Part shown: in pieces, positions 982 to 40,325 of the stretch | How the letters are laid out: every line of letters begins with the position of its first letter | How positions within the stretch are numbered: position 1 is the first letter of the stretch | Origin: Myxococcales bacterium | GTDB lineage: Bacteria > Myxococcota_A > Polyangia > Fen-1088 | Reading direction: 5' to 3' | NCBI GenBank assembly: GCA_031431215.1 | Contig: JANPCZ010000037.1 | Span: 6,355 to 70,354, forward strand | Length of the DNA: 64,000 nucleotides | Position numbers and translations under genes: made by a program | Notes under the pieces: model-generated | The model's database searches: none | Seen by the model: only the letters and a program-made list of their open reading frames with translations | What the model was told of the DNA's origin: nothing

Positions 982-2208
982 ATGGCGCGACGAGGTTCCG
1001 AGATCATCGTGGGTCTGGACATCGGCACCACAAAGATAGCTGCCGTGATAGGCGAGATGACCGATAGCGGCCTCGACATCATCGGTGTCGGCACGCACGC
1101 TTCGCGCGGCCTCAAGAAGGGAGTCATCGTCAACATCGACTCGACGGTGGCGGCGATCCGGCAGGCGGTGGGCGAGGCCGAACGTATGTCGGGCTGCCTG
1201 GTCTCGCAGATCTACGTCGGCATCGCCGGTGGCCACATCAAGGGCGTCAATTCGACGGGAACCGTCGCCATCAAGGACAAGGAAGTCCGCCCCATCGACA
1301 TTGCCAAGGTGCTTGAGCTGGCGCGGGCCATCGCCTTGCCGGTCGATCGCCACATCGTTCACGCCCTTGCGCAGGAGTATCAAATCGACGGCCAGGACGG
1401 CGTGCGCGAGCCGCTGGGCATGTGCGGTGTGCGCCTTGAGGCGCGGGTCCACATCGTGACCGCGGCGGCGGCGGCAGTGCAGAACATCATCAAGTGTTGC
1501 ACCCAGGCCGGCCTCGAAGTGCAGGACATCGTGCTCGAGCCCATCGCCTCGGGCGAAGCCGTGCTTGAGGAGGACGAGAAGGGGCTCGGCGCTGCGCTCA
1601 TCGACATTGGCGGCGGCACCACCGATCTTGCCATGTACACCGACGGCTATGTGGCACACACCAGCGTCATCCCCATCGGTGGGCACCAGCTGACCAACGA
1701 CATCGCGTTCGGGCTGCGCACCCCGCCGCACGAGGCCGAGAAGATCAAGCACCGCTGGGGCTGCGCCCTCGCGAGCATGGTGGGTGAGGACGAGACCATC
1801 GAGGTTCCGTCCGTGGGGGGGCGTGCACCGCGCGTGCTGTCGCGCCAGATGCTCTGTCGCGACATCATCCAGCCGCGGGTCGAGGAGATGTTCGACGTGG
1901 TCAGGAAGGAGATCGCACGGCTTGGCTGCGAGGACATGCTGGCGTCGGGCGCCGTCATCACCGGTGGCGCCACGCAATTGCCGGGTATGGCGGAACTTGG
2001 CGAAGAGATGCTGGGTATTCCCGTGCGTCTGGGCGTGCCCAAGGGGGTGGGGGGCCTGTCCGAGGCGGTCAAGGGACCCGGGTTTGCGACCGCCGTCGGG
2101 CTGGTGCAGTACGGGGCGCTCCAGCAGGGCGCCCATCCGTCGGCACCGGGCCCGATGCGGGTCGGGTTCTTCGGACGGTTCAAGAAGGCGATCTCGAGCG
2201 CGTTCTGA
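982..2208 (+). CDS. ftsA: Cell division protein FtsA (actin-like ATPase)
   Basis: 408 aa. N-terminal IVGLDIGTTKIAAVIGE actin-fold phosphate-1 motif and DIGGGTTD motif. RBS-like ACGGAGAA precedes ATG 982. Synteny ftsQ-ftsA-ftsZ. Confidence 0.9.
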   Translation: MARRGSEIIVGLDIGTTKIAAVIGEMTDSGLDIIGVGTHASRGLKKGVIVNIDSTVAAIRQAVGEAERMSGCLVSQIYVGIAGGHIKGVNSTGTVAIKDKEVRPIDIAKVLELARAIALPVDRHIVHALAQEYQIDGQDGVREPLGMCGVRLEARVHIVTAAAAAVQNIIKCCTQAGLEVQDIVLEPIASGEAVLEEDEKGLGAALIDIGGGTTDLAMYTDGYVAHTSVIPIGGHQLTNDIAFGLRTPPHEAEKIKHRWGCALASMVGEDETIEVPSVGGRAPRVLSRQMLCRDIIQPRVEEMFDVVRKEIARLGCEDMLASGAVITGGATQLPGMAELGEEMLGIPVRLGVPKGVGGLSEAVKGPGFATAVGLVQYGALQQGAHPSAPGPMRVGFFGRFKKAISSAF

Positions 2209-2239: not shown

Positions 2240-2325
2240 TCCGACGGAGATCAGAAAAAAATTGACTCAAAAATTAGCGTCGTCAAAGGCCACATGCGAC
2301 GAATGAATTGAGGGGAGAAACACGC
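2240..2325 (+). promoter_or_regulatory. AT-rich ftsA-ftsZ intergenic region, likely ftsZ promoter/leader
   Basis: Locally AT-rich stretch (cagaaaaaaattgactcaaaaattagcg) in an otherwise ~70% GC context. TTGACT hexamer at ~2262. SD immediately upstream of ftsZ. Confidence 0.25.
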
Positions 2326-3930
2326 ATGCTGGAATTCGCCGAGGAACTGATGGGACCCAAGATCAAGGTTGTCGGGGTCGGTGGTGGCGGCGGCAACGCC
2401 GTCAATACGATGATCGAAGCCGGGGTCCAAGGCGTCGATTTCATCGCCGCCAACACCGACGGCCAGGTGCTGGAGACCAACCTTGCGCCAGTCAAGATCC
2501 AGCTGGGCCGCAACCTGACCAAGGGCCTGGGCGCTGGCGCCAACCCCGAGATCGGTTGTGCCGCGGCCATCGAGGATGCCGCCAAGTTGGGTGAAGTGTT
2601 GGCCGGCGCCGACATGGTGTTCGTGACCGCCGGAATGGGCGGTGGCACGGGCACCGGCGCGGCCCCGGTCATCGCACAGGTGGCGCGCGATCTGGGCGCC
2701 CTGACCGTCGGGGTGGTGACCAGGCCGTTCATGTTCGAGGGCATGCAGCGCAAGAAGAAAGCCACCTCGGGCATCGGCGAGCTGGCCAAGTCGGTCGACG
2801 CCCTCATCGTGATCCCCAACGATCGCCTGGTGGCACTGGCGGGCAAGAAGATGACCCTGCGCGAGTCGTTTGCCATGGTCGACAACGTGTGCCTGAACGC
2901 GGTTCGCGGCATCAGCGATCTGGTGCTGGTGCCCGGGCTCATCAACGTCGACTTCGCAGACGTCCGCACCATCATGACGGGCATGGGCCGCGCTTTGATG
3001 GGAACCGGCCGAGGCGTCGGCGACAAGCGCGCGATAGACGCCGCGCAGGCCGCGATCAACTCGCCGCTGCTTGAGGATGTCTCGATCAACGGTGCCACCG
3101 GCATCCTGGTCAACATCACCGGCGGTGCCGATCTGACGCTGGCCGAGGTGACCGAGGCCTGCACCCTGATCCAGGAAGCGGCCGATCCCGATGCCAACAT
3201 CATCTTCGGCTCGGTCATCGATCCCAACATGGCCGACGAAGTTCGCATCACCGTGATCGCCACCGGCTTCCAGTCGCGGCAGGAGGCCACCATCGGAGGC
3301 AGCCTGGCGTCGGGCCGGACCGGTCGGCGCCCCGATACGCAGATGTCGCTACCCATTGCCGCCGCGCTGTCGTCGGCCGGGTTCGGCGCTCCCGCCGAGG
3401 CGACCCTGCAGGGTTTCCTTGCCACCGCCAAGGTGGTGGTCGCGGCGCGAGCGCCCGAGACCACGTTCGAGGTGGTGCTGGACGAGCCCACCTTGCCCCA
3501 GGCAATTGCCGTACCGCTACCTCCCCCGTTCCCCCAATCGCCCTCAGCGGCCGTGACGGTGTCCGAGCGCATCCCGACGTTCCCGTCGACCGTGCCGATC
3601 GCCAGCGCTGCGCCGCCCGCGGCGTCGCAGTTCGCGACCGCCGTGCCGGTGGACTATCCCACCGCGCGCGACAGCGGCTCGATGCCGATCATCCGTCCCG
3701 CGGTGGCATCGTCTCAGGTGGGGGCCCACTCCGCGACCTCACGACGTACGCCCTCGGCCATGCCGGCGGCGTCTTTGAACGAGGAAGACCTGGGCATTGC
3801 CGAGAGCGAGTTTGACAGGCCTACGTACATGCGGCGGGCGGTCGGCACGCAGACCCAGCCCGCGACGCTGTCCGCGCCGACCATGCGCCTGCCTGGTGAC
3901 AGCGGCGGCGGCGGCAAAGTAGGGTTCTAG
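2326..3930 (+). CDS. ftsZ: Cell division GTPase FtsZ with a long Pro/Ala-rich C-terminal linker
   Basis: Tubulin signature GGGTGTG and [26 protein letters not shown] lies 9 nt upstream of ATG 2326 (the ORF track starts at TTG 2308). About 200-aa low-complexity linker before the C-terminal peptide. Confidence 0.9.
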
Positions 3931-3956: not shown

Positions 3957-4703
3957 TCAGGGCAGCTTCGCGCGCGTCGCCGCCCAGCTCGGCTGCGGCT
4001 CGGGCTTGACGCTCCAGATGGTCAGGTCGTCGAGTTGAATCGCGCCCTGCATGGGACCAATGAAGCGGATCTCGCCCTTGGGCGCTGCTAGCGGCGCGGA
4101 CTGGGCAACCAGGGTGGGGCCACGCTCGAACTGGACGACAAGCGTGTCGCCCTTGACCTCGGCGAGCACGTGATACCACTGACCCGTCTTGACCTCGAAA
4201 CCGGTGCTCTTGCTGACGGGTTCCTTGCCGCTGTGCTCGTAGATGCCCACGGTGTGTTCGGTGAAGCGCACCGCGAGAATGTGGTGATCGAAGTCGATGG
4301 CGCTGCGGCCCAGCGCCTTGCCCTCGAACTTGATCTTGACGTCGATCGCGAAGTCGCCGAGGCCCTTGATGTCCATGACCGGCTTGGGACCGTTGTGGTC
4401 CTGCCGCGAGGCCTGAAATTCGGGCGTCGCGGGGATGCCCTTGAGCACGCCCTCCTCGATCGCCCATCGCGTGCTCTGAATCGGTTTCCAGATCTTGGTA
4501 TCGAGCGGCTTGGGTTTGTCGAAGTCGTCGCGAAGCTTGATCCTATCGACCTGAACGAGCAGAGGTTTGAGGGGACCGGCCTTCACCTGCGGGCCTGAGG
4601 CGCCCGCGGCCGCGTTCACGGGCCCGACGCTCGCGACGCCCCCGAGCACCAGCAGCGCCAAAGACCCTCGCCTCAAAGCTGACTCGACCCGTGCGCGTTT
4701 CAT
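3957..4703 (-). CDS. Secreted hypothetical protein, possibly a DUF1080 / 3-keto-disaccharide hydrolase-like jelly-roll
   Basis: Start taken at MKRARVESALRRGSLALLVLGGVASVG (signal peptide) rather than the upstream ORF-track start. Residues resemble DUF1080 (GDFAIDVKIKFEG...). Weak assignment. Confidence 0.45.
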   Translation of the reverse strand: MKRARVESALRRGSLALLVLGGVASVGPVNAAAGASGPQVKAGPLKPLLVQVDRIKLRDDFDKPKPLDTKIWKPIQSTRWAIEEGVLKGIPATPEFQASRQDHNGPKPVMDIKGLGDFAIDVKIKFEGKALGRSAIDFDHHILAVRFTEHTVGIYEHSGKEPVSKSTGFEVKTGQWYHVLAEVKGDTLVVQFERGPTLVAQSAPLAAPKGEIRFIGPMQGAIQLDDLTIWSVKPEPQPSWAATRAKLP

Positions 4704-4792
4704 GGACTCTCCCCGCGACGATTGTTTGAAAGATTTGGCAGCTAATCTAATTTGCCCTATACGGAGCCTTGACCGCGTGTATCCTCGCCCCG

Positions 4793-5731
4793 ATGGGCCA
4801 CCTCTGGACACTCGTTCCCCTGATTTTGTTAAATGCGGCGCCCACAACTGCGGCGCCCGGAACCCCGACTGACGGCCCGTCGATCGTCTGGGTGAACGAG
4901 GCGCCCAAGGGCAAGCCGCTGCCGCCGGGCGTCTCGCATCACACGTTTGTCAGCAAAGCCGCGGGCAACGAGGTCGGCTACTGCATTTACCTTCCGCCCG
5001 AGTACAAGCGATCGCCGAATAAGCGCTATCCGGTCATCTACAACCTCCACGGCAACGGCAGCGCCGCCAACGAATTCCACAGCCTCGACGACGTTGCCGT
5101 GCTGCACGAGGGGATCGTGGCCGGACGATGGCCGCCGATGATCGTCGTCCTACCGAACGGTGGCAAGAGCACCATGTACAAGGATTCGTACGATGGGCGG
5201 TTCCCGATCGAAACGATTATCATCAAAGAGCTGATCCCGCACATTGACCGCACCTACCGCACCATTGCGGCGCGAAGCGGCCGCGCCATCGAGGGCTTCT
5301 CGATGGGCGGGCGGGGTGCGACACGGCTGGCGATCAAGTACCCCGACATGTTCGTGTCGCTGTTTTGTCAGGCCGGCAATGTGCCCCACACGCTTCTCGG
5401 GTACGACCCGTCCAAGCCCAAGGTCTTTCCCAACAGCTACCTCGGCCCCGACCGCGCCAACTTTGAGAACAACGACGTCTACGAACTTTTGAAGAAGAAC
5501 CTGGCCAGGATCCGTGGGCGCCTGCGGATCCAGATCGCCTGTGGCACCAAGGACCCCGGCCACCTGACCACGATCCGCGACTTCCACCAGGCGCTCCTCT
5601 CACACGACGTGGACCACACGTACATCGAACTTGAGGGTCTCGCGCACGAGCGCGACAAGGTGCTGGACCGCCTGAAGGCCGTCTGGTTCGACTACCACGT
5701 CGAGTCCTTCCGGCGCGCGGCAGCCGAGTAG
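4793..5731 (+). CDS. Secreted alpha/beta-hydrolase, putative esterase family (esterase D / enterochelin-esterase-like)
   Basis: Signal-like N-terminus. IYNLHGNGS and GFSMGGRGA (GxSxG nucleophile elbow) motifs. Alternative TTG start at 4769. Confidence 0.6.
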   Translation: MGHLWTLVPLILLNAAPTTAAPGTPTDGPSIVWVNEAPKGKPLPPGVSHHTFVSKAAGNEVGYCIYLPPEYKRSPNKRYPVIYNLHGNGSAANEFHSLDDVAVLHEGIVAGRWPPMIVVLPNGGKSTMYKDSYDGRFPIETIIIKELIPHIDRTYRTIAARSGRAIEGFSMGGRGATRLAIKYPDMFVSLFCQAGNVPHTLLGYDPSKPKVFPNSYLGPDRANFENNDVYELLKKNLARIRGRLRIQIACGTKDPGHLTTIRDFHQALLSHDVDHTYIELEGLAHERDKVLDRLKAVWFDYHVESFRRAAAE

Positions 5732-6044
5732 AAACCTGCTTCGTGCCAACGTGGGGCTGGAAGCCAGAAGTCGCCAGCGCTGGGCCGATGTTCCGGTCGC
5801 TCAGCCGCGTCGCCACGCTGCGACCCATCGTTGCGACGAAGCTCTGTCCGAAAGGGCCCATGAAGGAGGGCTCGACCGGGCCCATGGACGTCAGTCGCAG
5901 TCGAGCGGCTGCCGGACCTTCTCGCTTGATTCCTGAACGGCCAGCTCATATTAAGTGTTGGGCGGCGACAACGACGGCGCCATGTCCGGCGGCCTGCAGA
6001 TTGCGGTTAGCCGCGCCACATTCCTGAACGAACAAGGTGAAAAG

Positions 6045-8300
6045 ATGGACGGACTTTCCGGCAGAGACAACAGGAATCCGCTTCCGGACCAGGCGCCTGC
6101 CACCTCTTGGAGAGGTCCCTACCTGCTAGCCAGAAGGGTGGTCCCGCTTTGTGCATTGGTAGCGGTTTTTATTGCCGCACCGGCAGTCGTTCTTGCCGAA
6201 ACGATAGGCGTATTTTTTGACCCGAATGTGGAGCAAATCAAGTTCGCGGCCGGCGACGTCAAGGCAGCCCTCGAGAAACACAAATTCACGGTCAGGATGC
6301 TTCCAGTTAACTCTTTGAAAGCGTCGTATGCCGACAAAAAGATTGTCATTGCCCTTGCGTCGAATGCCGCAGCCACGGCTGTGCTCGCGCTTCAGGGCGG
6401 AGGCAAGGCGGCGAAGCCGGGCGAACAGGCGTTTGCCCTTCGCACCACGGAAACGCCACAGAAATCCTACTGGGCCCTTGGCGGCGACGCGAACGGCGCA
6501 ATGTATGGCGGATTGCAGCTCGCCGAAAACATAGCATTCAACAAGTTCACCGACACATATGACACCGACGAGTCTCCGGCCATTTTGAAACGTGGAATCA
6601 AGTTGAACCTGCCGCTTGACAAAGAAAGCAGGACATACGGGAGGTCAAAGGTATCTGGAGCCAATAACGCTATTCACAACGCGTGGGACATGTCCTTCTG
6701 GAAAACCTGGTTCGATGAAATGGCGCGCAATCGATACAACGTGCTCTCAATTTGGAGCAACCATCCATTCACGTCGATGATCAAGATGCCTGAGTATCCC
6801 GACGTGGCGATACGTGACGTAACCGATTTCGATGGCAAGAAGAGAGCCATGTCGATCGACGCGAAGATTGAGTTCTGGAGGAAGGTGATGGCCTATGCGA
6901 AGTCGCGAGCCTTTGATTTCTATCTCGTCAACTGGAACATATGGACTGACGGCGCCTCGGGAAAACACGGGATCACCGACGACAAAAAGGAAGCGGCAAC
7001 CAGCAAGGCAACCATTGCGTACATGCGCAAGTGCATGACAAGACTTCTCGAGACCTATCCTGACCTCGATGGGTTTGGTGTTACTCAGGGCGAGCACATG
7101 TCGGAAAACGACAAGGACAACTCGGGATTCTTGGCAAACACGTTTGGACTAGGAATGGCCGACTATGCCAGGCGCAACCCGAAGAGGAAACTGGTCTTCA
7201 TTCATCGCTGGCACATGGCCGACTTCACCGAGATCAAGGAAAACTTTTCTGAACTCATGAAGCTTTCCAATGTGAGGTTCGAGCTGTCGTTCAAATACAG
7301 CCTGGCCCACATGTACTCGGCGGCCTTGCCGCAAAGAATGCGAGATACACACGTCGAGGCGCTTCGCGATAACAAGCTGAGATCGTGGCTCACGGTTCGT
7401 AACGATGACTTCTACTACCACAACTGGGGGGACCCAGGGTTTGCGCGCTCTTATGTTAACGGCATGATAGACAAGGGGGATTGGTTTATTGGGTATTACA
7501 TGGGATCGGATGGCTACTCCCCCACGCGGACATTTTTCAGCAAGGATAGCGTGACGCAGGGGCTCCTGGAGGTCCAGCGGCAGTGGTATATGTTCATGTT
7601 GTGGGGACGTATCTCCTATAACCCGATGATTGCCGACGCCGTATTCAGGAACCACATGGCGCTCAGGTATCCGCAAGTTGCAGCCGACCAGTTGTTCACG
7701 GCATGGAGTAAGTCTTCGAGGGGTTTGCCAAAAGTGGGCGACATGATTACGGGCACCCTGGGACGTGATGATCAATGGTGGCCCGAGGCATGCCAATCAG
7801 ACGATGGTTTCTTGACGGTCGCGGATTTTGGAAACGCAAAGGCGAACAAGGGTTCCGCCCTGAGCAGCATCGATGAGTCCGCATCCGGCCGTTTCGGTGA
7901 CAAGAAGAGCACCTACGCGGTGGCCGATGAGATCGAGACAGACGCCGTTTCGGCGCTTTCCATTGTGAACACCATGAGCGCCGGGCCAAATGCCGAGCTC
8001 GGCGTCACGCTCGGCAATATCAAGGCAATGTCCTACCTGACGGTCTATTATGCCTACAAGATCCGCGGGGCGACCCGCCTGAAGGCCAATGACAAGGAAA
8101 AGGCCAAAAATGCTGTGGGAACTGCGTACTGTTGGTGGATGAAGTACTCGAACCTGATGGATTCGATGTATCACGGCATGACGATGGCGCGCACTGCGAA
8201 TCTCGCCGACTGGCATGCACACGACAAGTCGGTTCTGAAGGAATTTGCCGATCTGGGCGGCGCCGGGACTCCTTCCTGCGAAAAGATTGCTACACAGTGA
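6045..8300 (+). CDS. Large secreted protein, possible glycoside-hydrolase-like enzyme of unknown family
   Basis: ATG 6045 preceded by AGGTGA. Long n-region then h-region VVPLCALVAVFIAAPAVVLA. ~750 aa with no recognisable catalytic motif. Lower GC than the flanks. The ORF-track start 5955 (GTG) includes an in-frame remnant similar to an internal segment. Confidence 0.5.
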   Translation: MDGLSGRDNRNPLPDQAPATSWRGPYLLARRVVPLCALVAVFIAAPAVVLAETIGVFFDPNVEQIKFAAGDVKAALEKHKFTVRMLPVNSLKASYADKKIVIALASNAAATAVLALQGGGKAAKPGEQAFALRTTETPQKSYWALGGDANGAMYGGLQLAENIAFNKFTDTYDTDESPAILKRGIKLNLPLDKESRTYGRSKVSGANNAIHNAWDMSFWKTWFDEMARNRYNVLSIWSNHPFTSMIKMPEYPDVAIRDVTDFDGKKRAMSIDAKIEFWRKVMAYAKSRAFDFYLVNWNIWTDGASGKHGITDDKKEAATSKATIAYMRKCMTRLLETYPDLDGFGVTQGEHMSENDKDNSGFLANTFGLGMADYARRNPKRKLVFIHRWHMADFTEIKENFSELMKLSNVRFELSFKYSLAHMYSAALPQRMRDTHVEALRDNKLRSWLTVRNDDFYYHNWGDPGFARSYVNGMIDKGDWFIGYYMGSDGYSPTRTFFSKDSVTQGLLEVQRQWYMFMLWGRISYNPMIADAVFRNHMALRYPQVAADQLFTAWSKSSRGLPKVGDMITGTLGRDDQWWPEACQSDDGFLTVADFGNAKANKGSALSSIDESASGRFGDKKSTYAVADEIETDAVSALSIVNTMSAGPNAELGVTLGNIKAMSYLTVYYAYKIRGATRLKANDKEKAKNAVGTAYCWWMKYSNLMDSMYHGMTMARTANLADWHAHDKSVLKEFADLGGAGTPSCEKIATQ

Positions 8301-8383
8301 CACCGCGAACGCCGGCGTGGGGTCCGCAGACCTTCGACGAGGCGAAAGTTACTCATGCTTCCCCATTCCACCCATTCCACCCC

Positions 8384-9820
8384 ATGACCCTTCCCCCCAC
8401 CCTCCGCTTCGCCTTCCTGATTTCAAGCCTGGTTTCCCTGTCCGCCGAAGCCTCACCTTCGCGGCCCAACATTCTGCTCATCGTCGCCGACGATCTTGGC
8501 TACAGCGACGTTGGCTTCCAGGGCGCCCGGGACATCCGCACGCCGCACCTCGACAGGCTCGCCGCCTCGGGCGTCCGCTGCACCGACGGCTACGTCTCCT
8601 ACCCGGTCTGCAGTCCCTCGCGCGCCGGCTTTTTGACCGGTCGCTACCAGCAACGCTTCGGCTACGAGTTTAACCCCAAGTGGGACGCCACCGCCGTCAC
8701 GCACGGCTTGCCGCTGTCCGAAACCACCCTCGCCGATTCGCTCCGCTCCGCGGGCTACACCACCGGCGCGGTCGGCAAGTGGCACCTCGGCGCCCATCCG
8801 CAATTTCATCCTAACCGCCGCGGCTTCGACGAATACTTCGGTTTCCTCGGTGGCGGCCATCGTTATCTCCCGGGTTCGGTTGCCGAAGTCGAAATCGGTG
8901 CGGGCAAGAAAGCCGCCGCGACGGCCAACACCGAGGAAACCTCCGCTATTTTGCACAACTCTACGGAGGTCCCCGAGATCGGCGAACTCACCACGCGCCT
9001 CGGCGAAGAAGCCACCGCTTCCGTCATCCGCCACGCTCGCGACCGCAAACCGTGGTTCCTCTATCTCGCCTTCAATGCCCCGCACACGCCGCTTCAAGCG
9101 CGTGAAGATATGCTCAAAAAATATGCGTCCATCACCGACGAACGCCGCCGCACTTATGCCGCGATGGTCGCCACGGTCGATGAAGCCGTGGGCCACATCG
9201 TTGCCGCCCTGGAAGCCACCGGCCAGCGCGCGCGGACCCTCATCTTCTTCATCTCCGACAATGGCGGGCCGATGACCAAGCGCAACGCCAACGCTTCCGT
9301 GAATTCCCCGCTACGCGGCCAAAAGGGCGACGTTTTCGAAGGTGGCATCCGCGTTCCCTTCCTGGTCTCCTGGCCCGCCCGTATCCGGGCTGGCCGCACT
9401 TACGCAAAACCCGTCATCTCCCTCGACGTCCTTCCCACGGCCCTCGCCGCCGCCGGAACCACGCGCGACGCCAAGCTCTCCGTGCTCGACGGCGTGAACC
9501 TCCTGCCCTTTCTCACGGGGAAGAATCCCGCCGCTCCCCACGCGCGCCTGTTCTGGCGCATGGACGGAGGCGAGGCCTTTGCTGTGCGCGAAGGAAACTG
9601 GAAGTGGATGCGCACCTATCAAAACGCTCCCCAGCTCTACGATCTTGCGACAGACCTCGGCGAATCCCGCGACCTCGCCACCGCACATCCCGAAATCGCC
9701 GCGCGCCTCGCCGCCTCCTCCGCCGACTGGAACCGCGGGCTCGTCGCCCCCGCTTTCGGCAACAATCCCTTCGGCGGCCTCATCAACCGCACCGGTTTGG
9801 AAAAAAACGCGGCGCCCTGA
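8384..9820 (+). CDS. Arylsulfatase-family sulfatase (Cys-type, formylglycine-dependent)
   Basis: Signal peptide. PNILLIVADDLGYSDVGFQG and the C-P-S-R formylglycine motif (PVCSPSRAGFLTGRY). The ORF track starts at 8132, but an in-frame ATG at 8384 begins the signal peptide. Confidence 0.85.
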   Translation: MTLPPTLRFAFLISSLVSLSAEASPSRPNILLIVADDLGYSDVGFQGARDIRTPHLDRLAASGVRCTDGYVSYPVCSPSRAGFLTGRYQQRFGYEFNPKWDATAVTHGLPLSETTLADSLRSAGYTTGAVGKWHLGAHPQFHPNRRGFDEYFGFLGGGHRYLPGSVAEVEIGAGKKAAATANTEETSAILHNSTEVPEIGELTTRLGEEATASVIRHARDRKPWFLYLAFNAPHTPLQAREDMLKKYASITDERRRTYAAMVATVDEAVGHIVAALEATGQRARTLIFFISDNGGPMTKRNANASVNSPLRGQKGDVFEGGIRVPFLVSWPARIRAGRTYAKPVISLDVLPTALAAAGTTRDAKLSVLDGVNLLPFLTGKNPAAPHARLFWRMDGGEAFAVREGNWKWMRTYQNAPQLYDLATDLGESRDLATAHPEIAARLAASSADWNRGLVAPAFGNNPFGGLINRTGLEKNAAP

Positions 9821-9860
9821 TCTCGCCTGGGTGTTGGCAGTAGATTCGTAGAGCAGACGC

Positions 9861-11174
9861 TTACAGATCGGCCAGCGGGCCGGTGCTGTTGCCGAACACG
9901 GGCATGTTGACGCCGACCGAACCAAGCATCGCCAGAAACAGATTGGCGATCGGCTGGTCCTTCTTGATGATGTGACTGCCGGGGTGCAGGGCACCGCCGC
10001 CCTTGCCTGCAAGCAGCACCGGCAAGTTGGTGTGGCGGTGCGCGTCGCCGTCCTCGATCTCGCTGGAAAAGAAAACCGCCGAGTTTTCGAGCAGCGTCCC
10101 GGTGCCCTCCGTGACAGCCTTCATCTTTCCCAGCAAGTACGCGAACTGTTCGACCTCCCACGTGCCGATGGTCTGCAGCGCCGCCAGGTTGGCGGGCGCC
10201 ATCTGATGGTGCGACAACTGGTGGTGCGCTCCGGGCACGCCGATGAACGGGTAGGTGCGGTTGCTGCCCGCGTTGCCGATCATGAACGTGGCAACGCGGA
10301 CCAGATCGCACTGAAACGCGAGCACCATGATGTCGCTCATCAAGCGAACGTGCTCTTGGTACGCCAGAGTCGCGGATGGGCGCGCTGGTATCTGGCAGCC
10401 ACTCATCATCGTTTTGTCGGCGACCTGCCGTTCGATCTCGCGGACGCCCCCCATGAACTCATCGACCTTGCGCCGGTCGGTCACGCCAAGCTTGGTCCGC
10501 AAGGCGGTCGCGTCAGCGAGCGCAAAGTCGAGCACGCTGGTCTTGTAACGTCGGCGTCGGTCTCTTTCTGCGGGCGAGACGGTCGCGTCGAGACCTTCGA
10601 ACAGCTGGTCGAACACCGTCTGGGGGTTGATGATCTTGGGCAACGGCGTGGCGGGCCCCGCCCACGAGATGCTTCGTGCGTAAGCGCAGCTGTAACCGGA
10701 ATCGCACCCGCCCGCGCTGGATCCGCCGTCGATGCCAAGCTGCAGCGACGGAAACTTGGTGGCCTTCGCAAGCGCGCCCGCGGCGATCTGATCGACCGAC
10801 ACGCCGTTCTGGATGTCCGAGCCCTCCGTCTTCTTCGGATGCGCGCAGGTGAGAAATGCTCCCGTGCCCGAGGCATGGTCGCCGGGACCGTCGGGCCGCG
10901 CGGGCAAGTTCGCCAGACCAGTGATGACCGAGACATCGGCGCGCAGTGTCTCGAGCGGTTTCAGAATTGGCGTCAGCGCGTACGCCGGGCCCGTGGTGGC
11001 TGGAGTCCAGCCCGCCATGTGGATGCCGCAAGGAACGTAGTAAAACAGCAGGCGCTTGGCCTGGGTCGCGGCGCTGGCGGTGCGCGGCGCAAGGCTTTCC
11101 AAGAACGGTAGCGCGACGGTGGCACCGGCGCTGACCAGAACGCCGCGGCGTGAACGTCGACGTTGAACGATCAT
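9861..11174 (-). CDS. DUF1501 domain protein (sulfatase-like fold, Tat signal), Planctomycete-type
   Basis: Twin-arginine N-terminus MIVQRRRSRRGVLVSAGATVALPF. ~437 aa. Overlaps the downstream DUF1592-like gene by 4 nt. This partner pairing is typical. Confidence 0.75.
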   Translation of the reverse strand: MIVQRRRSRRGVLVSAGATVALPFLESLAPRTASAATQAKRLLFYYVPCGIHMAGWTPATTGPAYALTPILKPLETLRADVSVITGLANLPARPDGPGDHASGTGAFLTCAHPKKTEGSDIQNGVSVDQIAAGALAKATKFPSLQLGIDGGSSAGGCDSGYSCAYARSISWAGPATPLPKIINPQTVFDQLFEGLDATVSPAERDRRRRYKTSVLDFALADATALRTKLGVTDRRKVDEFMGGVREIERQVADKTMMSGCQIPARPSATLAYQEHVRLMSDIMVLAFQCDLVRVATFMIGNAGSNRTYPFIGVPGAHHQLSHHQMAPANLAALQTIGTWEVEQFAYLLGKMKAVTEGTGTLLENSAVFFSSEIEDGDAHRHTNLPVLLAGKGGGALHPGSHIIKKDQPIANLFLAMLGSVGVNMPVFGNSTGPLADL

Positions 11175-13264
11175 GGGGTCCTCATGGGTTCGAGCTCGCC
11201 CCGGCGTTGAGCGAAGGTGCCGCTGGTGGCCACCGATTCAAGGAGGGTACGCAGGCGCAGGCCGCCCGACAGGAAGCCCTTGGCGAGGCCGTCCACGGTT
11301 TGGGTGTCCAGGTGCCCGGCCGTGTGCTCGACACCGCGTCCGAGCGCGTAGACATAAAGTTGCTCGGTCACGCAGGCCGCGAAGCGCGGATCCGCGGCGA
11401 GCACCGTGGACAGTTGCTTGGCGCCGTTGAAGGCGCGCCCATCGGGGAACTTGCCTGAGGCATCGATGGTCTTGCCTGCGTCGGTGGAACGGTAAACCCC
11501 GACGGCGTCGTAGTTCTCAAGGCCGAAACCCAGGGGGTCCATCAGCGCGTGGCAACTTGCGCACACCACATTGGCTCGATGCAGCTCGAGCCGCTCGCGC
11601 AGCGTTCCGGTGGGTTTGTCTTCGGGCTTTAGCCCTTCCACGCCGGGCGGTGGCGGCGGTGGTGGAATGCACAACAGCTGTTCCAGGATCCAGCGGCCTC
11701 GTTGCACCGGCGAGGTGCGCGTGGGATAGGACGTCACGGTCAGGAGGCTTCCCTGGGTGAGAAACCCGCCCCGATTGGTGCCGGCCACTGACACCTTTTT
11801 GGGCACGGCCGATCCGGGCGGCGGCAACCCGTAGTGCTTGGCCAGCCGATCCGTGAGGTAGGTGGTGTCACTCGCTAGCATCTTGTCGATGCCGATGTCC
11901 CCGGCGACGAAATCGCGGAACATGAGCTGCGTTTCGTCGCGCATGTCCTCGCGCAGCGCAGGGTTGTACGAAGGAAAGACATTGGCGTCCGGGTCATGGT
12001 CGTCGAGCTTCCGGGTGTACAGCCACTGACCACCGAAGTTCGCGATGAGTGCGGCAGCCTTGGCATCCGCGAGCATCCGCGCCACCTGCGCCTTGATCTC
12101 CGCCGGCGTGCTCAGGCGTCCGGCGTCGGCGGCCGCGAACAGTGCATCGTCCGGCATGCTGCTCCACAGGAAGTAGGACAGGCGCGAGGCGAACTCGTGA
12201 GGGTTGAGCTTGTGCGGGACCAGCGACGTGGGCGTTGGATCAAGCTCGACGCGGAAAACGAAGTGCGGCGAGACCAGCGCCGACTGCATGGCGAGCTTGA
12301 GGCCGCTCTCGAACGACTGCCCGTCAGCGCGCACCATCCGCACGACGCCCATCAATCGCGCCATTTCGTCGGCGGTGACGGGTCGCCGCCAGGCGCGGCG
12401 CATGAACGCGCGCAGCAGGGTATCGACGCAAGCTTCCCCCGACGCCGGATCGCAGGTCAGCAGTCGATCGCGGCTGGGGTTGCGGGTGGGGCCTTCGAGC
12501 GGACCTTCGATCTCGAAGTAGTCGACGAACAGGTTGCGGTCAGCGCTCGTTGCCGTGTCGACGAAGTCGTTGGTGAAGCCGACGCGCACCGTGCGGTTGC
12601 CAGCAACGACCTTGAAGGTACTCTCGACGATCTCAGGCATCACTTCGTTGGCCTTGACGTCGAACACCTTCGTTGCCGCGTCCACGCCGAGGGACAGCTT
12701 GGCGAGTTCCGCGCCGGCCTGTTGCGCCCAGGCTCTCGCCCTCAGCTTGTAGGTGCCGTCCGCGGGGGCCTTGAATGTCGCGACGAGTTCACCGTTGGAC
12801 CACAGCAGCCAGGCCTGCTTGTAGGCTTGGCCGATCGGAGATCCGACGGTCTCGGCCTCGAAGCGCGTGGTGGTGACGTCTACGCCTGGTCGCAGGGCAT
12901 CGTCGACCACGGCCTGTGCCGACCGTTGCAGCAGTTCGATGTGCAGCGGGCTCAGCGACAGGACATCGGCGATGTTGTCGAAGCCGTAACCGCGATCGTC
13001 CGAGGGAAACTCGTCGGCCGGGCGCAGGGTGGTGCCCAGCAAGTCGCGAACCGTGTTGTTGTATTCGACGCGGTTCAGTCGATGCAGCGTCACGCGTCCC
13101 GGATCGGTGGCAGGGCCCGTCGGTGCAGGGCTGCCGCCCATCATCGAAGCACCGGCCCCGCCGGTCCCGGGTGCCGGGGCCGAGCCGCTGCCTACCTGTC
13201 CCGTGCAAGCCGTAAACGCCAGCAGAAACCCGCCGGCCCACGCGACCGTCCTGCGGTACATCAT
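11171..13264 (-). CDS. PSCyt/PSD family protein (DUF1592/DUF1588/DUF1585-like) with a c-type haem CxxCH motif
   Basis: 697 aa, signal peptide, CASCH haem-binding motif (VVCASCHALMDPLGFGLENYD). Start codon overlaps the stop of the DUF1501 gene (translationally coupled pair). Confidence 0.7.
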   Translation of the reverse strand: MMYRRTVAWAGGFLLAFTACTGQVGSGSAPAPGTGGAGASMMGGSPAPTGPATDPGRVTLHRLNRVEYNNTVRDLLGTTLRPADEFPSDDRGYGFDNIADVLSLSPLHIELLQRSAQAVVDDALRPGVDVTTTRFEAETVGSPIGQAYKQAWLLWSNGELVATFKAPADGTYKLRARAWAQQAGAELAKLSLGVDAATKVFDVKANEVMPEIVESTFKVVAGNRTVRVGFTNDFVDTATSADRNLFVDYFEIEGPLEGPTRNPSRDRLLTCDPASGEACVDTLLRAFMRRAWRRPVTADEMARLMGVVRMVRADGQSFESGLKLAMQSALVSPHFVFRVELDPTPTSLVPHKLNPHEFASRLSYFLWSSMPDDALFAAADAGRLSTPAEIKAQVARMLADAKAAALIANFGGQWLYTRKLDDHDPDANVFPSYNPALREDMRDETQLMFRDFVAGDIGIDKMLASDTTYLTDRLAKHYGLPPPGSAVPKKVSVAGTNRGGFLTQGSLLTVTSYPTRTSPVQRGRWILEQLLCIPPPPPPPGVEGLKPEDKPTGTLRERLELHRANVVCASCHALMDPLGFGLENYDAVGVYRSTDAGKTIDASGKFPDGRAFNGAKQLSTVLAADPRFAACVTEQLYVYALGRGVEHTAGHLDTQTVDGLAKGFLSGGLRLRTLLESVATSGTFAQRRGELEPMRTP

Positions 13265-13394: not shown

Positions 13395-13862
13395 ATGCCG
13401 GCAGCAACCGCGAACAAGGTTCTGGCGCGCAACCGGAAGGCGCGCCATGACTTCCACGTCGAGGAGACGGTGGAAGCCGGCCTCGTGCTCGCGGGCTCAG
13501 AGGTCAAGTCCATCCGTGCCGGCAAGGCCACGCTGACCGACGCGTTTGCCGAGATAGATCGCGGCGAGGCGTGGCTTTTGCAGATGGACATCACGCCCTA
13601 CGCTTTCGCGCACGCGCGCAATCACGAAGCGCGCCGGCGGCGCAAGCTTCTGCTACACCGCCGCGAGATCGACAGGCTGGCGGCAAAGATCCAGGCCAAG
13701 GGCTTCACCATGGTGCCGCTGTCGCTGTACGAGAAGCAGGGGCTGGTCAAGGTCGAGCTCGGGCTGGTTCGTGGCAAGCAGTCGTTTGACCGGCGTGAGG
13801 ACGTCAAGAAGCGCGAGGCCCAGCGGGAAATCGATCGGGGCATGTCGTCGCGGCGGCGCTGA
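13395..13862 (+). CDS. smpB: SsrA-binding protein SmpB
   Basis: 155 aa. KVLARNRKARHDFHVEE..GLVLAGSEVKSIR and the conserved C-terminal basic tail are diagnostic. Confidence 0.9.
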   Translation: MPAATANKVLARNRKARHDFHVEETVEAGLVLAGSEVKSIRAGKATLTDAFAEIDRGEAWLLQMDITPYAFAHARNHEARRRRKLLLHRREIDRLAAKIQAKGFTMVPLSLYEKQGLVKVELGLVRGKQSFDRREDVKKREAQREIDRGMSSRRR

Positions 13863-13884: not shown

Positions 13885-14439
13885 TCACAGGTAGTCGATG
13901 TCGACCACGGTCAGCTCGCGCGTGCCGGCGTGCCAGCGCACCACCACCGTGTCGCCAGGTTCCTTGCCAAGCAGGGCGCGCCCGGTCGGGGACTGCCAGG
14001 AGATGGCTCCGGTGGTGCCTTCGATCTCATCGACGCCGACGATGCGGTAGACGTGGCTTGCGCCGTCCTGGTCCTCGACCCGCACCGTGGCACCGAAGAA
14101 CACGCGGTCGCGACGCTTCTGGTCGCGCGGGTCGACCACCTGCACGAAATCCATGCGCTTCGACAGAAACCGCAGGCGCCCGTCGATCTGGCGCAGCTGG
14201 CGCTTGCGGTAGATGTATTCGGCGTTCTCCGAGCGGTCGCCTTCCGCGGCGGCATCGCCGAGGGCGCTGACCACCTCGGGCCGTTTGGTCGCGCGCAGGA
14301 AATCGAACTCCGCCGTCAGTTTCTTGTAGCCGGCGGGCGTGATGTAATTGGGCGTGCCCCCGGGCGCGCTCCTGATGGTTTCACCGCGCGCCGCGGGCCG
14401 TGCGCGGCTTGCGGTTCCTGGCTGTCTTCTGCCGGCCAT
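13885..14439 (-). CDS. Transcription elongation factor, GreA/GreB family
   Basis: N-terminal coiled-coil with acidic tip (GDRSENAEY) and C-terminal FKBP-like domain (VYRIVGVDEIEG...ISWQSPTGRALLGKEPGD). Confidence 0.8.
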   Translation of the reverse strand: MAGRRQPGTASRARPAARGETIRSAPGGTPNYITPAGYKKLTAEFDFLRATKRPEVVSALGDAAAEGDRSENAEYIYRKRQLRQIDGRLRFLSKRMDFVQVVDPRDQKRRDRVFFGATVRVEDQDGASHVYRIVGVDEIEGTTGAISWQSPTGRALLGKEPGDTVVVRWHAGTRELTVVDIDYL

Positions 14440-14451
14440 GGTGTGGCGAAT

Positions 14452-17299
14452 CTAGCCGGATTCCTTCGCCATCTGCTGACCGAAGGCGGTCATGAACGCG
14501 GTCCGCACGCGCGCCATGCGGGTTTCGGTCTCGGCCGAAAATTGCGCCGTGGTCATGTCCAGTGTCCGTGCCAGCAAGGCCCGATCCTCAGGCAGCAGCC
14601 GATCATCGGGGCGGTCGCGCAAAAGCCGCAGGCGTAGCGACGCCCGCTGCAGGAAGCGGTAGTCATCGACCAGTGCCGGCTCGACGGCGCCACCGCCGCG
14701 GTCGATCAGGCGTCGCAGCGCGGCCAGCGGTGACGTCGTTCGCAGCGCCTGATCGTCGCGGCCGTGGCGCAGTTGACCGAGGGCGGCCAGGAATTCGAGG
14801 TCAGTCAGTCCTCCCGGCGAGAAGCGCAGGTGGATGGTGCCGGGCTCGTCCCGGGCTCGATCGTCCTCGATGCGGCGGCGTATGCGGTAGAGCTCGCTCG
14901 CCACGGTCGCATCGTCGGTGGCATGCCCGTAGGCGATCTCGATCAGGGTAGCTGCGAACCCGGCTGCCGCGTCGCCGGTGGGGCCCGGGGCGGCGTACAC
15001 CGGGCGCGCGCGCAGCAGCGCCATGCGCTCCCACGCGGCGGCATCCTCGCGGTGGTAGCGTGCGAAGCTCGCGTAGGTCGTGACCAGCATGCCCTGCTCA
15101 CCCGAAGGCCGCAGGCGGGTATCGACCTCGTACAGCCGCCCCTCGTCGAGCAGGGCTCCAAGCGCATTGATCACCCGCTGGGCCAGCCGCGCGAACCACT
15201 CCTGGTGGTCCATGCCCGTCGTGGTGGTGCCGGGGCCCGCATACAGGAAGACCAGGTCGAGGTCCGAGCCGTAGCGCATCTCGCGTGCGCCAAGGCTACC
15301 CAGTGCCAGGATGGTCAGCGCAGCCGCGGGGATGCCGTGGCGCTGCCGAAGGGTGACCAGCACGCGATCCACTGTGGCCGCCAGGATGGCCTCCGCAAGC
15401 GTGCCTAGCTGCCGGGAGGCTTCGTCGGCAGGCAGCGTGCCCGAAACGTCGTGCAACCCGATGCGCAGGATCTCCTCGGCGGCAAAGCGGCGCATCTCGC
15501 GCAGGGCTTCCTCCTCGTCGAGCCCCGCCAGACGTGCGGTCAGGGCGTGGCCGAAAGCCTCATCGGGCAATGCCGGCGCGCCGAAACGTTCCGCCAGCGG
15601 TAGCCACAGCGCCGGGTGGCCGATGAGATGGCGCGACAGTCGCTCGCTGGTGCCGAACAGCGTGGCCAGCATGCGGAGCAGCTGCGGGGTGTCCCGCAAC
15701 AGCGTGCGCAGGCCCAGCGATCCGTGCAGCGCCAGATCGCGAAAGTGCCCCAGAGCCCGATCGGGATCCGGCGAAGCCAGGCTTTCCTCCAGCCACTCGG
15801 ACGGCAGCCGCGCCCGCGCAAGATCAAGCGAGTCTGCCGCTGCTTCGACGTCGCGGAAGCCGGCACTGGCCAGGTCCGCCAGGCTTTGTTCGCGGCTCGA
15901 GGCCGGATCGAGCAGGCGGAGGACGATGGCGGCCGGCGCTTGCTCGGGCTCACCCAGGGTTTCGGCGATGGCAGCGACCGTGATCCGGTGCTCGTTCAAC
16001 ACGCGGGCGAACGCCTCGCCGTCCGGAAAGCCCAGGCGCCGGGCCAGGCGTTCGATCGCGGTCGGCTCGGCGGGCAGCTCGTGGGTTTGCGCGCCGTCCT
16101 CAAGCTGCAGGCGATGCTCGACGCGCCGTAGAAACCGATAAGCGGCCGCCAGACTTCGCTCTTCGTGGTCGGTCAGGAGGCCGACCACCCAGAGCTTGTG
16201 CAATGCCGGCAGCGTGGCGCGTTCGCGCAGCTCGGGGCGCTTGCCCGCGTGCAGCAGCTGCAGCAGCTGCGCGGTGAGCTCGACATCCCGGATACCGCCC
16301 GTGCCGAGCTTGACGTTCAGCAGGGCGCGCTGCCCGGTTGGTGTGAACAGGCGGCGCAGCTCGCGCACCTGCTCGACCGCGCCGGCGCCCAGGGAGCGCG
16401 GGTGGATGAACGGCGCCAGCGTCTGGAGCAAGAGCGCGCCCAGGGGCGCATCGCCGGCACAGGGCCGCGCCCGCAGCAACGCCTGCCGCTCCCAGGTGCG
16501 CCCGAACGCCTCGTAGTAGCGCTCGCATGCCGGCAGTGAGTTGCAGATGGCGCCGCCACGTCCTTCGGGCCGCAAGCGAAGATCGACCCGGAACACCAGC
16601 CCATCGGCGGTGATCTCGTCGAGCGCACGAGTCACCGCCTGCGACAGGCGCACGTAGTACTCATGCAGAGTCAGCGATCCCGCGCGGCCGTCGTCGGATG
16701 AGTACACGTAAACCAGATCGACATCGGACGAAAAATTAAGCTCTTCGCCACCGAGCTTGCCCATGCCCAGCACCACGAACCCTGGCGGCCCGTCGGCTGA
16801 CTGCGGGGTGCCGTAGGCCGCGCGCAGTTCCGCCTCGCAGAAGCCCACCGCCGCTTCCAGGCACGCGTCGGCCAGGAACGACAGCTCGGCGGCTACCTCC
16901 ATCGTCGTGCCCCAGCCGATTTCTCGCGCCCCCAGCCGCAGCATCTCGCGCCGAGTGATCTGGCGCAGGCGCCGTTGCAGATCCGCGAAGTCGCGCGCCG
17001 GTGCGGTCGCGGCGAGCAGCTCGGCGACCAGGCTGGCGCGCGGTTTCGAGCGGTGCAGGTACGGATCGGCGCGCAACCGCGGCAAAGCATCCGGGTCCGA
17101 CAGCACCAGATTCGCCAGGTAGCCGCCGTTCGAAAGCAGGGCCACCAGCAGCGCCCGCCCGTCCCCATCGTTGGCCGACGGCAACGCGCCACCGCTTTCC
17201 ACGAATCGTTCGAGGCGGGGCGCGGCACCTTCGGGATCGGGCCCCGCCGCGATCAGATCCGCCAGGGCAGAGCTCACGTCAACGATGTTCTCCATCATA
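14452..17299 (-). CDS. glnE: Bifunctional glutamine synthetase adenylyltransferase/adenylyl-removing enzyme GlnE
   Basis: ~950 aa with two nucleotidyltransferase motifs (LGMGKLGGEELNFSSDVDLVYVY and LGSLGAREMRYGSDLDLVFLY). Start set at the MM codons at 17299, not the upstream ORF-track start 17391. Confidence 0.8.
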
Positions 17300-17375
17300 C
17301 GGGACACCCGCCTGCCCGCGATGGGCCGAGCGAGGCGAAGCTGCAGGTCCTCGGACCGTGTGCTAGAGACAGGGC

Positions 17376-18113
17376 ATGGCGTGGATCGCACAAGATGGCA
17401 ACAGGGTCGGCACCGGTGCCTTCGCCGGGACGCGCAACCACACGGAGGACGCGGCGCGAGCGTTTCTCGGGCGCGTGTATCGATTCATGTCGATGGGCCT
17501 CGGGGTCACCGGCGTGGTGGCGCTGCTGGTGGCATCCAGCCCAGCCGCGCTGTCGTTTCTCATCCTGAACCGCGGCGTCTTCATGGCGCTCATCATCGCC
17601 CAGCTGGTGATGGTGGTGGCGTTCTCGTCGCTGGCGCAGCGGGTGAGTGCCGGCACCGCGGCGGCCATGTTCTTCGGCTATGCGGCCTTGTCGGGGGTCA
17701 CCTTCGCGGCCATCTTTCTCATCTACACGGCGGCATCCATCGGCGGAACGTTCCTGGTAACCGCCGGCATGTTCGGCGGGCTGTCGGCCTACGGCGCGAT
17801 CACCCGGCGCAAGCTGGACGGGCTCGGCAGCTTCCTGTTCATGGGTCTCATCGGCCTGGTCATCGCCTCCGTCGTCAACATCTTCCTGGGCAGCCCGGCG
17901 CTGTACTGGCTGACCACCTTCATGGGTGTCATCGTGTTCACCGGCCTCACCGCCTATGACACCGCCAAGCTGAAGGCGCTGGCCGCAAATCTCGACGGTG
18001 GCAAGCAGCGTGAAACCAAGCTCGCCTTGCAGGGCGCGCTCATTCTCTACCTCGACTTCATCAACCTGTTCTTGATGCTGCTGCGCCTGTTCGGCGGCCG
18101 GCGTCGCGACTGA
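17376..18113 (+). CDS. Bax inhibitor-1/YccA family (TMBIM) membrane protein
   Basis: 245 aa, seven predicted TM helices, characteristic N-terminus and C-terminal basic tail (LLRLFGGRRRD). Confidence 0.75.
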   Translation: MAWIAQDGNRVGTGAFAGTRNHTEDAARAFLGRVYRFMSMGLGVTGVVALLVASSPAALSFLILNRGVFMALIIAQLVMVVAFSSLAQRVSAGTAAAMFFGYAALSGVTFAAIFLIYTAASIGGTFLVTAGMFGGLSAYGAITRRKLDGLGSFLFMGLIGLVIASVVNIFLGSPALYWLTTFMGVIVFTGLTAYDTAKLKALAANLDGGKQRETKLALQGALILYLDFINLFLMLLRLFGGRRRD

Positions 18114-40063: not shown

Positions 40064-40226
40064 GGCGTGCGGGGTCGAGAGAAAGAAAAGGTCCCGAACA
40101 CCCGGTCGGATGGTTACCGTTGCTCCCTTCCGGGCCTGGCGGGGTTCGCCTTCTTTCCGTCGCCCGGGACCAGCGCTACTTCTGGCACACCTGCCCCTCG
40201 AACGCCAGCGTCGGGGGAGACGATTG

Positions 40227-40311: not shown

Positions 40312-40325
40312 AGTTTCTTTTCCTG

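Follow-up and report, generated by a model that had tools for sequence, protein, structure and literature searches.

Which of the genes between ftsZ and smpB in a 64-kb stretch of contig JANPCZ010000037.1 (the window, meaning the whole stretch that was analysed) came from another phylum, and which belong to the host? A sequence-only reading had treated four genes at 5955-13264, for a secreted hydrolase-like protein, a sulfatase, a DUF1501 protein and a DUF1592-like protein, as one lower-GC block and as a sulfated-polysaccharide module acquired from Planctomycetes or Verrucomicrobia. Our analysis divides these genes into two pairs. The gene for the hydrolase-like protein of 751 amino acids (aa), which resembles glycoside hydrolase (GH) family 138 and is called GH138-like below, and the sulfatase gene were very probably acquired horizontally by a Polyangia-like host from Verrucomicrobiota (Opitutales-like) donors, and the neighbouring DUF1592-DUF1552 operon is native. 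On this evidence the locus represents an ordinary acquisition, across phyla, of a glycosidase-sulfatase cassette of two genes, and a four-gene island is not supported. Judging from protein matches, the host is most likely a poorly sampled myxobacterium of the Polyangia type; among 1.8 billion representatives nothing is more than 66% identical to its GlnE, the nearest lying at 44-66% aa identity.

Composition and relatives of the four genes

We scanned the guanine-plus-cytosine (GC) content of the window in 1-kb steps, ranked all of its 2,346-nt stretches, and compared each gene with a leave-one-out codon model trained on 44 plausible genes called in the window. The mean GC content is 0.665 (66.5%). 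The lowest 2,346-nt stretch of the 64 kb starts near 5,900 and has a GC content of 0.546, about -4.4 standard deviations (SD) from the mean (SD 0.027). In the 1-kb steps, GC falls to 0.54 at 6-8 kb only and is at the background level of 0.62-0.70 from about 8-8.4 kb onward. The earlier impression that the drop is strongest at 6.0-8.3 kb was thus accurate, this being the deepest 2.3-kb trough of the window, but the supposed low GC across all of 5955-13264 was not found: only 5.95-8.3 kb is low.

The codon model separated the genes in the same way. The GH138-like gene (6045-8300; overall GC 0.545) is the strongest codon-usage outlier in the window, with a GC content at third codon positions (GC3) of 0.687 against 0.847 expected and a codon log-likelihood z of -3.9. 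The sulfatase gene (8384-9820) deviates weakly (GC3 0.789 against 0.843 expected; codon z = -1.0; binomial z -3.3). The remaining two genes are host-like: GC3 is 0.817 against 0.846 expected for the DUF1552 gene (codon z = -0.4) and 0.816 against 0.843 for the DUF1592 gene (codon z = -0.3). Taken as a mark of a genomic island, atypical composition is therefore present at 6045-8300, marginal at 8384-9820 and absent at 9861-13264. The “lower-GC block” is one gene plus a faint signal in the sulfatase gene. Under host codon usage, the amino acids of the 751-aa protein predict a GC content of 0.607, so that about half of the trough is due to amino-acid composition and half to foreign codon usage.

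The relatives of the genes, examined by database matches, nucleotide identity and synonymous divergence (dS), lie in distant lineages for the GH138-like and sulfatase genes and within Polyangia for the DUF1552 and DUF1592 genes. For the GH138-like protein, 2,430 homologues were detected, and the best 120 of these were inspected for names. The best matches came from Verrucomicrobiota, Opitutales, Akkermansiaceae and Bacteroidales at 60-82% aa identity, the closest (own entry excluded) reaching 77%, or 82% over a partial protein. Names among the best 120 of the 2,430 included Verrucomicrobia, Bacteroidales, Lacunisphaera, Luteolibacter, Armatimonas and Planctomycetota. A search of 185,579 genomes, one per GTDB species, gave 35 loci with the GH138-like family, 34 of them in Verrucomicrobiota, Bacteroidota or Planctomycetota, save one labelled Bifidobacteriaceae (L003). 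Neither the best 120 of the 2,430 matches nor the 185,579 species-representative genomes held a full-length myxobacterial homologue. At the nucleotide level, a verrucomicrobial contig with a GC content of 0.58 (L001) is 79.7% identical to the GH138-like gene over 2,134 nt.

The 35th locus (L036; JANPFD010000280.1, 1125-1428) belongs to a metagenome-assembled genome (MAG) labelled “Myxococcales bacterium” and holds a fragment of 267 nt only, 79% identical to window positions 7489-7754, inside the GH138-like gene; no full-length gene surrounds it. Either a further decayed import into a myxobacterial genome or a mistake in binning may account for this fragment.

The closest relatives of the sulfatase are 82-89% identical in amino acids, and those with names belong to Opitutus sp., Opitutaceae and Verrucomicrobiota. 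Over 1,359 nt the gene is 81-82% identical to its counterparts on three contigs (L041, L043 and L044), and both its GC content of 0.652 and its GC3 match those of Opitutaceae-type orthologues. Since dS between the window gene and the L043 copy (0.80) is close to that between the L041 and L043 copies (0.83), the sulfatase nests within the diversity of the Opitutaceae-type copies. Both imported genes have dN/dS (nonsynonymous over synonymous divergence) of 0.09-0.14 and retain all family-invariant residues, which indicates that they are intact and constrained.

The other two genes have a different ancestry. The best non-self match of the DUF1592 protein is 62% identical; named matches are at 50-55%, and every one of them is a Polyangium, Polyangiaceae, Polyangiales, Byssovorax or Myxococcales protein. 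As a pair, the DUF1552 and DUF1592 proteins are 51-70% identical to Polyangia pairs versus 30-37% to verrucomicrobial pairs, and the DUF1552 protein alone is 55-70% identical to Polyangia homologues versus 30-32% to Opitutaceae-type ones. Gene order is DUF1592 then DUF1552 both here and in Polyangia contigs, where the surrounding contexts are other ones, as against DUF1552, then DUF1592, then the sulfatase in Opitutaceae-type contigs. From these matches and their host codon usage, the two genes are native to the host. The earlier proposal of horizontal acquisition therefore holds for the GH138-like gene, with its Verrucomicrobiota and Bacteroidota relatives, and for the sulfatase gene, with its Opitutaceae relatives, and fails for the DUF1552 and DUF1592 genes. 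Its further premise, that all four families are hallmarks of Planctomycetes and Verrucomicrobia, has to be dropped: with named relatives that are all of Polyangia type, the DUF1552 and PSCyt3 families are not hallmarks of those phyla alone. Such genes are not markers of ancestry in the Planctomycetes-Verrucomicrobia-Chlamydiae (PVC) group, an annotation error that is easily made and is corrected here.

The part that looks foreign extends from about 5.87 kb to the stop codon of the sulfatase gene at 9820, about 3.9 kb, between a native esterase gene and the DUF1592-DUF1552 operon. The features of the region are as follows.

982-2208, plus strand: ftsA (Pfam)
2308-3930, plus strand: ftsZ (Pfam)
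3957-4847, minus strand: secreted protein with no assigned family (open reading frame, ORF)
4769-5731, plus strand: secreted PF00756 esterase, the native left flank (Pfam E = 1e-22; codon z = -0.3)
5871-6005, plus strand: decayed fragment of the GH138-like gene family (family profile E = 1.9e-8)
6045-8300, plus strand: GH138-like gene, 751 aa from the ATG at 6045, in an ORF open from a GTG at 5955 (no Pfam family)
8384-9820, plus strand: PF00884 S1 sulfatase, 478 aa, with a CSPSR motif and a signal peptide (Pfam E = 1.1e-61)
9861-11174, minus strand: PF07586 DUF1552/HXXSHH protein, 437 aa (Pfam E = 2e-98)
11171-13264, minus strand: PSD3/CBM60-like/PSD5/PSD4/PSCyt3/PSD2 lipoprotein-like protein, 697 aa, with a CASCH motif (Pfam domains)
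13395-13862, plus strand: smpB, the native right flank (Pfam)
13885-14439, minus strand: greA (Pfam)
14452-17391, minus strand: glnE (Pfam)

All four genes of the proposed block were recovered in their places by the ORF and Pfam analysis. The block does lie between ftsZ and smpB, though not next to ftsZ, as two further genes (3957-4847 and 4769-5731) intervene. The sulfatase gene starts 83 nt downstream of the GH138-like gene on the same strand. It is convergent with the DUF1552 gene, with 40 nt between the two stop codons, and the DUF1592 gene overlaps the start of the DUF1552 gene by 4 nt, the latter being the second gene of a two-gene operon.

As we reconstruct it, the insert would consist of a decayed GH138-like remnant, an intact GH138-like gene and an intact S1_19-type sulfatase gene. 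The remnant was found by hmmsearch of the family profile against the six-frame translation of 5600-6100. It spans about 45 codons with two in-frame stops and matches profile positions 88-134, corresponding to the N-terminal-domain motif “...SYWvLGGDanGAMyGGLQIA”. It is the source of a 44-nt direct repeat, 75% identical, at 5961-6004 and 6480-6523. Because the family forms tandem arrays in verrucomicrobial contigs, the relic probably represents the remains of a neighbouring tandem copy of the GH138-like gene. In Verrucomicrobiota and Bacteroidota the family often occurs as 3-4 tandem paralogues that are 25-80% identical to the window copy (for instance L001 1261-11593, L017 10001-20779 and L019 10001-18618). 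The public (NCBI) gene call of 772 aa, with its start at 5982, begins inside the relic, and its annotated N-terminus is probably too long; the public annotation of the glycosidase, which opens within a pseudogene relic, is thereby corrected. Homologues start about 25 residues ahead of the conserved “AETVGVFFDP”.

One transfer, two or none

Several observations weigh against the acquisition as set out above. The phylum of the host was read from the named DUF1592 matches. No integrase or transposase was found among the ORFs scanned at 1-14 kb, and the insert has neither a tRNA gene near it (nearest, at 40.2 kb) nor a flanking pair of direct repeats. The dS to the nearest sampled relatives is 0.8-1.1, which implies an unsampled true donor or a transfer that was not very recent. 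An insert-free relative was not found: scanning metagenomes with the esterase yielded short or non-syntenic contigs only. The 64-kb window holds no formylglycine-generating enzyme (FGE) detectable by tblastn with a Polyangium FGE-domain protein (best E 0.17). No sampled genome has orthologues of the GH138-like and sulfatase genes side by side. Finally, the two imported genes differ in GC3 (0.687 versus 0.789) and their nearest relatives sit in genomes with GC contents of 0.52-0.58 and 0.62-0.64, respectively, so that two events fit as well as one.

Apart from the same strain (L037), the host relatives recovered were distant ones with GlnE 58-66% identical (L051-L053). Their contigs end before the site or are rearranged, and L053 has other genes around smpB, although the order PP2C-glnE-greA is conserved in L051 and L053. 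Promoter and terminator scans around 4.7-10 kb gave nothing above chance.

If horizontal transfer took place, a single event has roughly an even chance of being the right account of it. Two separate acquisitions, in which a lower-GC verrucomicrobium supplied the GH138-like gene and an Opitutaceae bacterium of about 62% GC the sulfatase gene, the two genes landing side by side at a variable spot, are a lesser but real possibility. Beyond the difference in GC3 between the window genes and the lack of a sampled contig with both orthologues adjacent, this account draws on the GC3 of the closest GH138-like copies (L001, L005 and L003), which is 0.64-0.67, as against 0.80-0.82 for the orthologues in Opitutales of 61-63% GC. 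It also draws on the relic at 5871-6005, evidence that genes have been gained and have decayed at this site. On the other hand, the genes are only 83 nt apart on one strand and have similar nucleotide identities to their nearest relatives (~80-82%). The GH138-like genes of verrucomicrobial contigs are moreover themselves lower in GC than their surroundings (0.516 versus 0.579 in L001), so that one donor could carry both genes.

The original proposal, that all of 5955-13264 is a single acquired Planctomycetes/Verrucomicrobia module of four genes, is largely refuted, and we regard it as very unlikely. It could appeal to the abundance of all four families in PVC bacteria, to the Opitutaceae-type contigs in which a sulfatase orthologue lies directly downstream of a DUF1552-DUF1592 pair, and to the frequent occurrence of sulfatase genes beside PSCyt genes in freshwater Verrucomicrobia (PMC5615132). 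It runs into the host-typical codon usage and GC3 of 0.82 of the DUF1552 and DUF1592 genes, into their exclusively Polyangia named matches, with identities far above those to verrucomicrobial pairs, and into a pair order that is Polyangia-like and the reverse of that in the Opitutaceae-type contigs.

An assembly or binning artefact, in which a verrucomicrobial fragment was misjoined into a myxobacterial contig, deserves a hearing because the source is probably a metagenome-assembled contig of 93 kb and the sulfatase gene is cut off by the end of a Logan contig from the same strain. An independent Logan assembly (L037), however, joins sulfatase residues 128-478 to DUF1552, DUF1592, smpB, greA and glnE at 99-100% identity. 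It spans the sulfatase-DUF1552 junction at 100% identity and so speaks against chimerism at that end of the insert. In addition, the 781-aa ORF that starts upstream of the GH138-like gene has a counterpart of at least 90% protein identity on a separate Logan contig, and within one contig the foreign stretch is enclosed by native genes on either side. An artefact is accordingly a highly improbable explanation.

Vertical inheritance without any transfer, the low GC stemming from amino-acid composition or weak codon selection, is the least probable account of all: the expected GC of 0.607 does explain about half of the deficit and the “Myxococcales” MAG does carry a 267-nt fragment of the family, yet no gene in the window deviates more in codon choice than the GH138-like gene, full-length myxobacterial homologues are absent from the searches described above, and the ~80-82% nucleotide identity with Verrucomicrobiota genes is irreconcilable with vertical divergence at phylum level, seeing that the host GlnE reaches only 44-66% aa identity to its nearest relatives in the databases.

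Acquisition of the GH138-like and sulfatase genes thus stays the preferred account, and the direction of transfer would be from Verrucomicrobiota into the myxobacterium. It offers a small, clean example of carbohydrate-active genes moving in that direction; such transfers bear on the substrate range of soil and freshwater predators or degraders.

The two probably imported proteins and their proposed function

The description of the first gene product as a secreted hydrolase-like protein of ~750 aa was borne out. The 751-aa ORF has a signal-peptide-like N-terminus and a GH138-like fold. The Pfam scan assigned it to no family. The NCBIfam alpha-D-galacturonidase model NF049878 gave a partial match (E = 1.7e-21; 76 bits, the cut-off being 1300) at positions 10-320 of 901 of the profile. 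Among proteins in the PDB, BPa0997 (GH138) matched at E = 2.7e-10, or 3e-16 with a profile, over residues 137-363 only. An AlphaFold2 (AF2) model built with 32 homologues, with a mean predicted local distance difference test (pLDDT) score of 83.4 and a predicted template-modelling (pTM) score of 0.85, has an N-terminal alpha/beta domain, a (beta/alpha)8 barrel and a helical C-terminal domain. In Foldseek the top five hits of this model were all chains of BPa0997 (6hzg/6hze), at E = 1e-29, a template-modelling (TM) score of 0.70 and 16% identity; GH84, GH20 and GH67 came next, at TM 0.42-0.52.

Glu350 of the 751-aa protein aligns with E294 of BPa0997 and is invariant in 32 family members; Asp454 is invariant as well. 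The catalytic glutamates of BPa0997 are reported to be E294 and E361 (Labourel et al. 2019), the second of which is backed by the PDB entry name “E361S”; the alignment stops before E361. The protein has the three-domain (beta/alpha)8-barrel fold of GH138 without full-length sequence similarity to BT0997 or BPa0997. In view of the fold match and Glu350 together with the partial sequence match, we named it GH138-like rather than GH138.

The comparison with GH138 itself, a family of alpha-D-galacturonidases acting on rhamnogalacturonan-II chain A (BT0997/BPa0997; 6hze, 6hzf and 6hzg), runs both ways. The three-domain architecture is shared at TM 0.70 over the full length, sequence similarity is significant in the N-terminal domain and in the barrel's first half, and a glutamate occupies the E294 position. 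The window protein, however, is about 140 aa shorter, has only 16% identity in the structural alignment and scores 76 against 1300 bits in NCBIfam. The donor-side context of its family, with sulfatases, melibiase-like proteins and GH127, is also unlike the rhamnogalacturonan-II locus. We therefore regard the 751-aa protein, from its model, as a putative secreted three-domain glycoside hydrolase that is best treated as a member of a separate sister family to GH138. A literature search for GH138-like families tied to sulfated glycans found nothing relevant. As a large family without a Pfam model and tightly associated with sulfatases, it is a sensible target for biochemical characterisation. Some Bacteroidota members end in a Por secretion tail (PF18962).

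The second gene had been called a Cys-type sulfatase, and this was confirmed: the product carries a PF00884 domain and the C-x-P-x-R formylglycine motif in the form CSPSR, of which C76, S77, P78 and R80 are invariant in the family alignment, and it belongs with the S1 sulfatases. We judged its subfamily by the closest PDB structures, as a stand-in for assignment with the SulfAtlas hidden Markov models. Each of the six top-scoring PDB entries is an S1_19 carrageenan 4-O-sulfatase (E = 6e-104 to 1e-100). Identity to 6prm, an S1_19B sulfatase of the exo-G4S type that acts on kappa-carrageenan, is 46% over ~416 aligned residues; the next subfamily, S1_16, follows at 4e-76 and GalNAc-6-sulfatases at 2.5e-62 or weaker. 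By these matches, the protein is predicted to be a Cys-type (formylglycine) S1 sulfatase of the S1_19 type. The S1_19 subfamily removes galactose 4-sulfate in kappa- and iota-carrageenan (PMC6923384). The likeness to the Pseudoalteromonas S1_19A and S1_19B enzymes (6bia, 6prm and 6b0j) lies in the PF00884 fold, the CSPSR motif and the identity to 6prm. The differences are that the orthologous group of the window sulfatase comes from Opitutaceae-type contigs (GC 0.62) and that no carrageenan-specific GH16, GH82 or GH167 gene adjoins it.

Signal peptides are visible in the sequences of both intact imported proteins, and the genes, with their 83-nt spacer, may be co-transcribed. In the mechanism that we propose, an enzyme that the host encodes elsewhere would turn Cys76 of the sulfatase into formylglycine. 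Once matured, the sulfatase would remove O-sulfate, most likely from galactose-4-sulfate-type esters, at the ends of glycans or oligosaccharides outside the cytoplasm, and the GH138-like (beta/alpha)8-barrel glycosidase, through Glu350, would break a glycosidic linkage in sulfated glycans of the same class. The host would thereby gain a substrate normally used by Verrucomicrobiota and Bacteroidota. Both the substrate and the co-operation of the two enzymes are inferred.

On the maturation step, an FGE-sulfatase-domain gene (PF03781) lies at 16859-17770 of a Polyangium aurulentum sequence (L040; CP079217.1), ~3.5 kb downstream of a DUF1592-DUF1552 pair. By its domain assignment, it indicates that FGE-type maturation domains exist in the wider lineage of the host.

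A role of the imported pair in the breakdown of sulfated glycans seems reasonable, because the donor-side neighbourhoods of the GH138-like family hold sulfatases and glycoside hydrolases: several sulfatases, melibiase-like proteins, GH127, GH31, GH2, GH43-CBM6 and a TonB-dependent receptor. In L001, three tandem GH138-like paralogues stand among five sulfatase ORFs. The idea of a sulfated-polysaccharide module is therefore plausible for the two imported genes and not for four. Sulfatase-rich polysaccharide clusters of Verrucomicrobiota and Bacteroidota combine tandem GH138-like genes, several sulfatases and other glycoside hydrolases with a TonB-dependent receptor; the window, in contrast, holds two such genes only, with no transporter, regulator or further glycoside hydrolase. 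The window pair is a fragment of a utilisation locus and not a complete one.

The native DUF1592-DUF1552 pair and minor observations

The gene that had been labelled DUF1501 is something else. Its only Pfam match is PF07586 (DUF1552/HXXSHH), at 330 bits against a cut-off of 30 and E = 2e-98, and DUF1501 (PF07394) was not matched. The protein carries the HxxSHH motif as HQLSHH, with H318, S321, H322 and H323 invariant, and has a twin-arginine-like N-terminus (RRRSRRGVL). The description of its partner as a DUF1592-like protein with a haem CxxCH was right: in the 697-aa protein encoded at 11171-13264, all five domains of the PSD3-PSD5-PSD4-PSCyt3-PSD2 set score above their Pfam cut-offs, alongside a CBM60-like stretch, and the haem motif, CASCH, lies in the PSCyt3 region. 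Compared with the “Planctomycete-specific” DUF1592/PSCyt3 and DUF1552 pairs, the domain set and the tight two-gene operon are as in PVC bacteria; the window copy differs in falling in the Polyangia clade and in having the order DUF1592 then DUF1552.

In nature the DUF1592/PSCyt3 set also occurs fused to DUF1552/HXXSHH, in a 1,149-aa protein (P0214) encoded on an ENA contig of 456 kb, and this fusion speaks for the two products being partners, physically or functionally. An hhalign comparison of the DUF1552 C-terminus with the sulfatase core gave a weak local match (probability 10%, E = 0.003), which hints at an alkaline-phosphatase/sulfatase-like fold for DUF1552. A DUF1552 profile search against the PDB gave no match, and a single-sequence AF2 model was unusable (pLDDT 32).

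The window sulfatase adjoins the native DUF1592/DUF1552 pair, which is not orthologous to the pair in the likely donors. In the Opitutaceae-type contigs a sulfatase orthologue lies directly downstream of a DUF1552-DUF1592 pair (L041 6158-11428, L043 5998-11431 and L044 3-3580), an arrangement kept across two Opitutaceae-type lineages separated by a dS of ~0.83. Sulfatase genes often neighbour PSCyt genes in freshwater Verrucomicrobia, and are also described next to GH genes (He et al. 2017, PMC5615132). The adjacency could be chance, as both families are multi-copy; if it is not, it might reflect a functional coupling of DUF1552/PSCyt3 proteins to sulfate-ester processing. Jointly with this coupling, the GH138-like family, with >2,400 homologues and no Pfam model, might be a new GH family that is a sister of GH138 and specialises in sulfated glycans. 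We consider this combined proposal speculative and rather unlikely.

Away from the locus, the second strongest codon-usage outlier of the window lies at 28948-29775 on the minus strand, a gene of 275 aa with a Schlafen AlbA_2 domain (PF04326, E = 1.4e-6). With a GC3 of 0.691 against 0.847 expected and a codon z of -3.1, it is a possible further foreign gene. A small signal recognition particle (SRP) RNA at 40083-40175 (minus strand) adjoins tRNA-Ser genes (GGA, 40226-40311; CGA, 40325-40412, minus strand), and a short ORF beside them (40454-40858), whose codon usage is atypical, is probably spurious.

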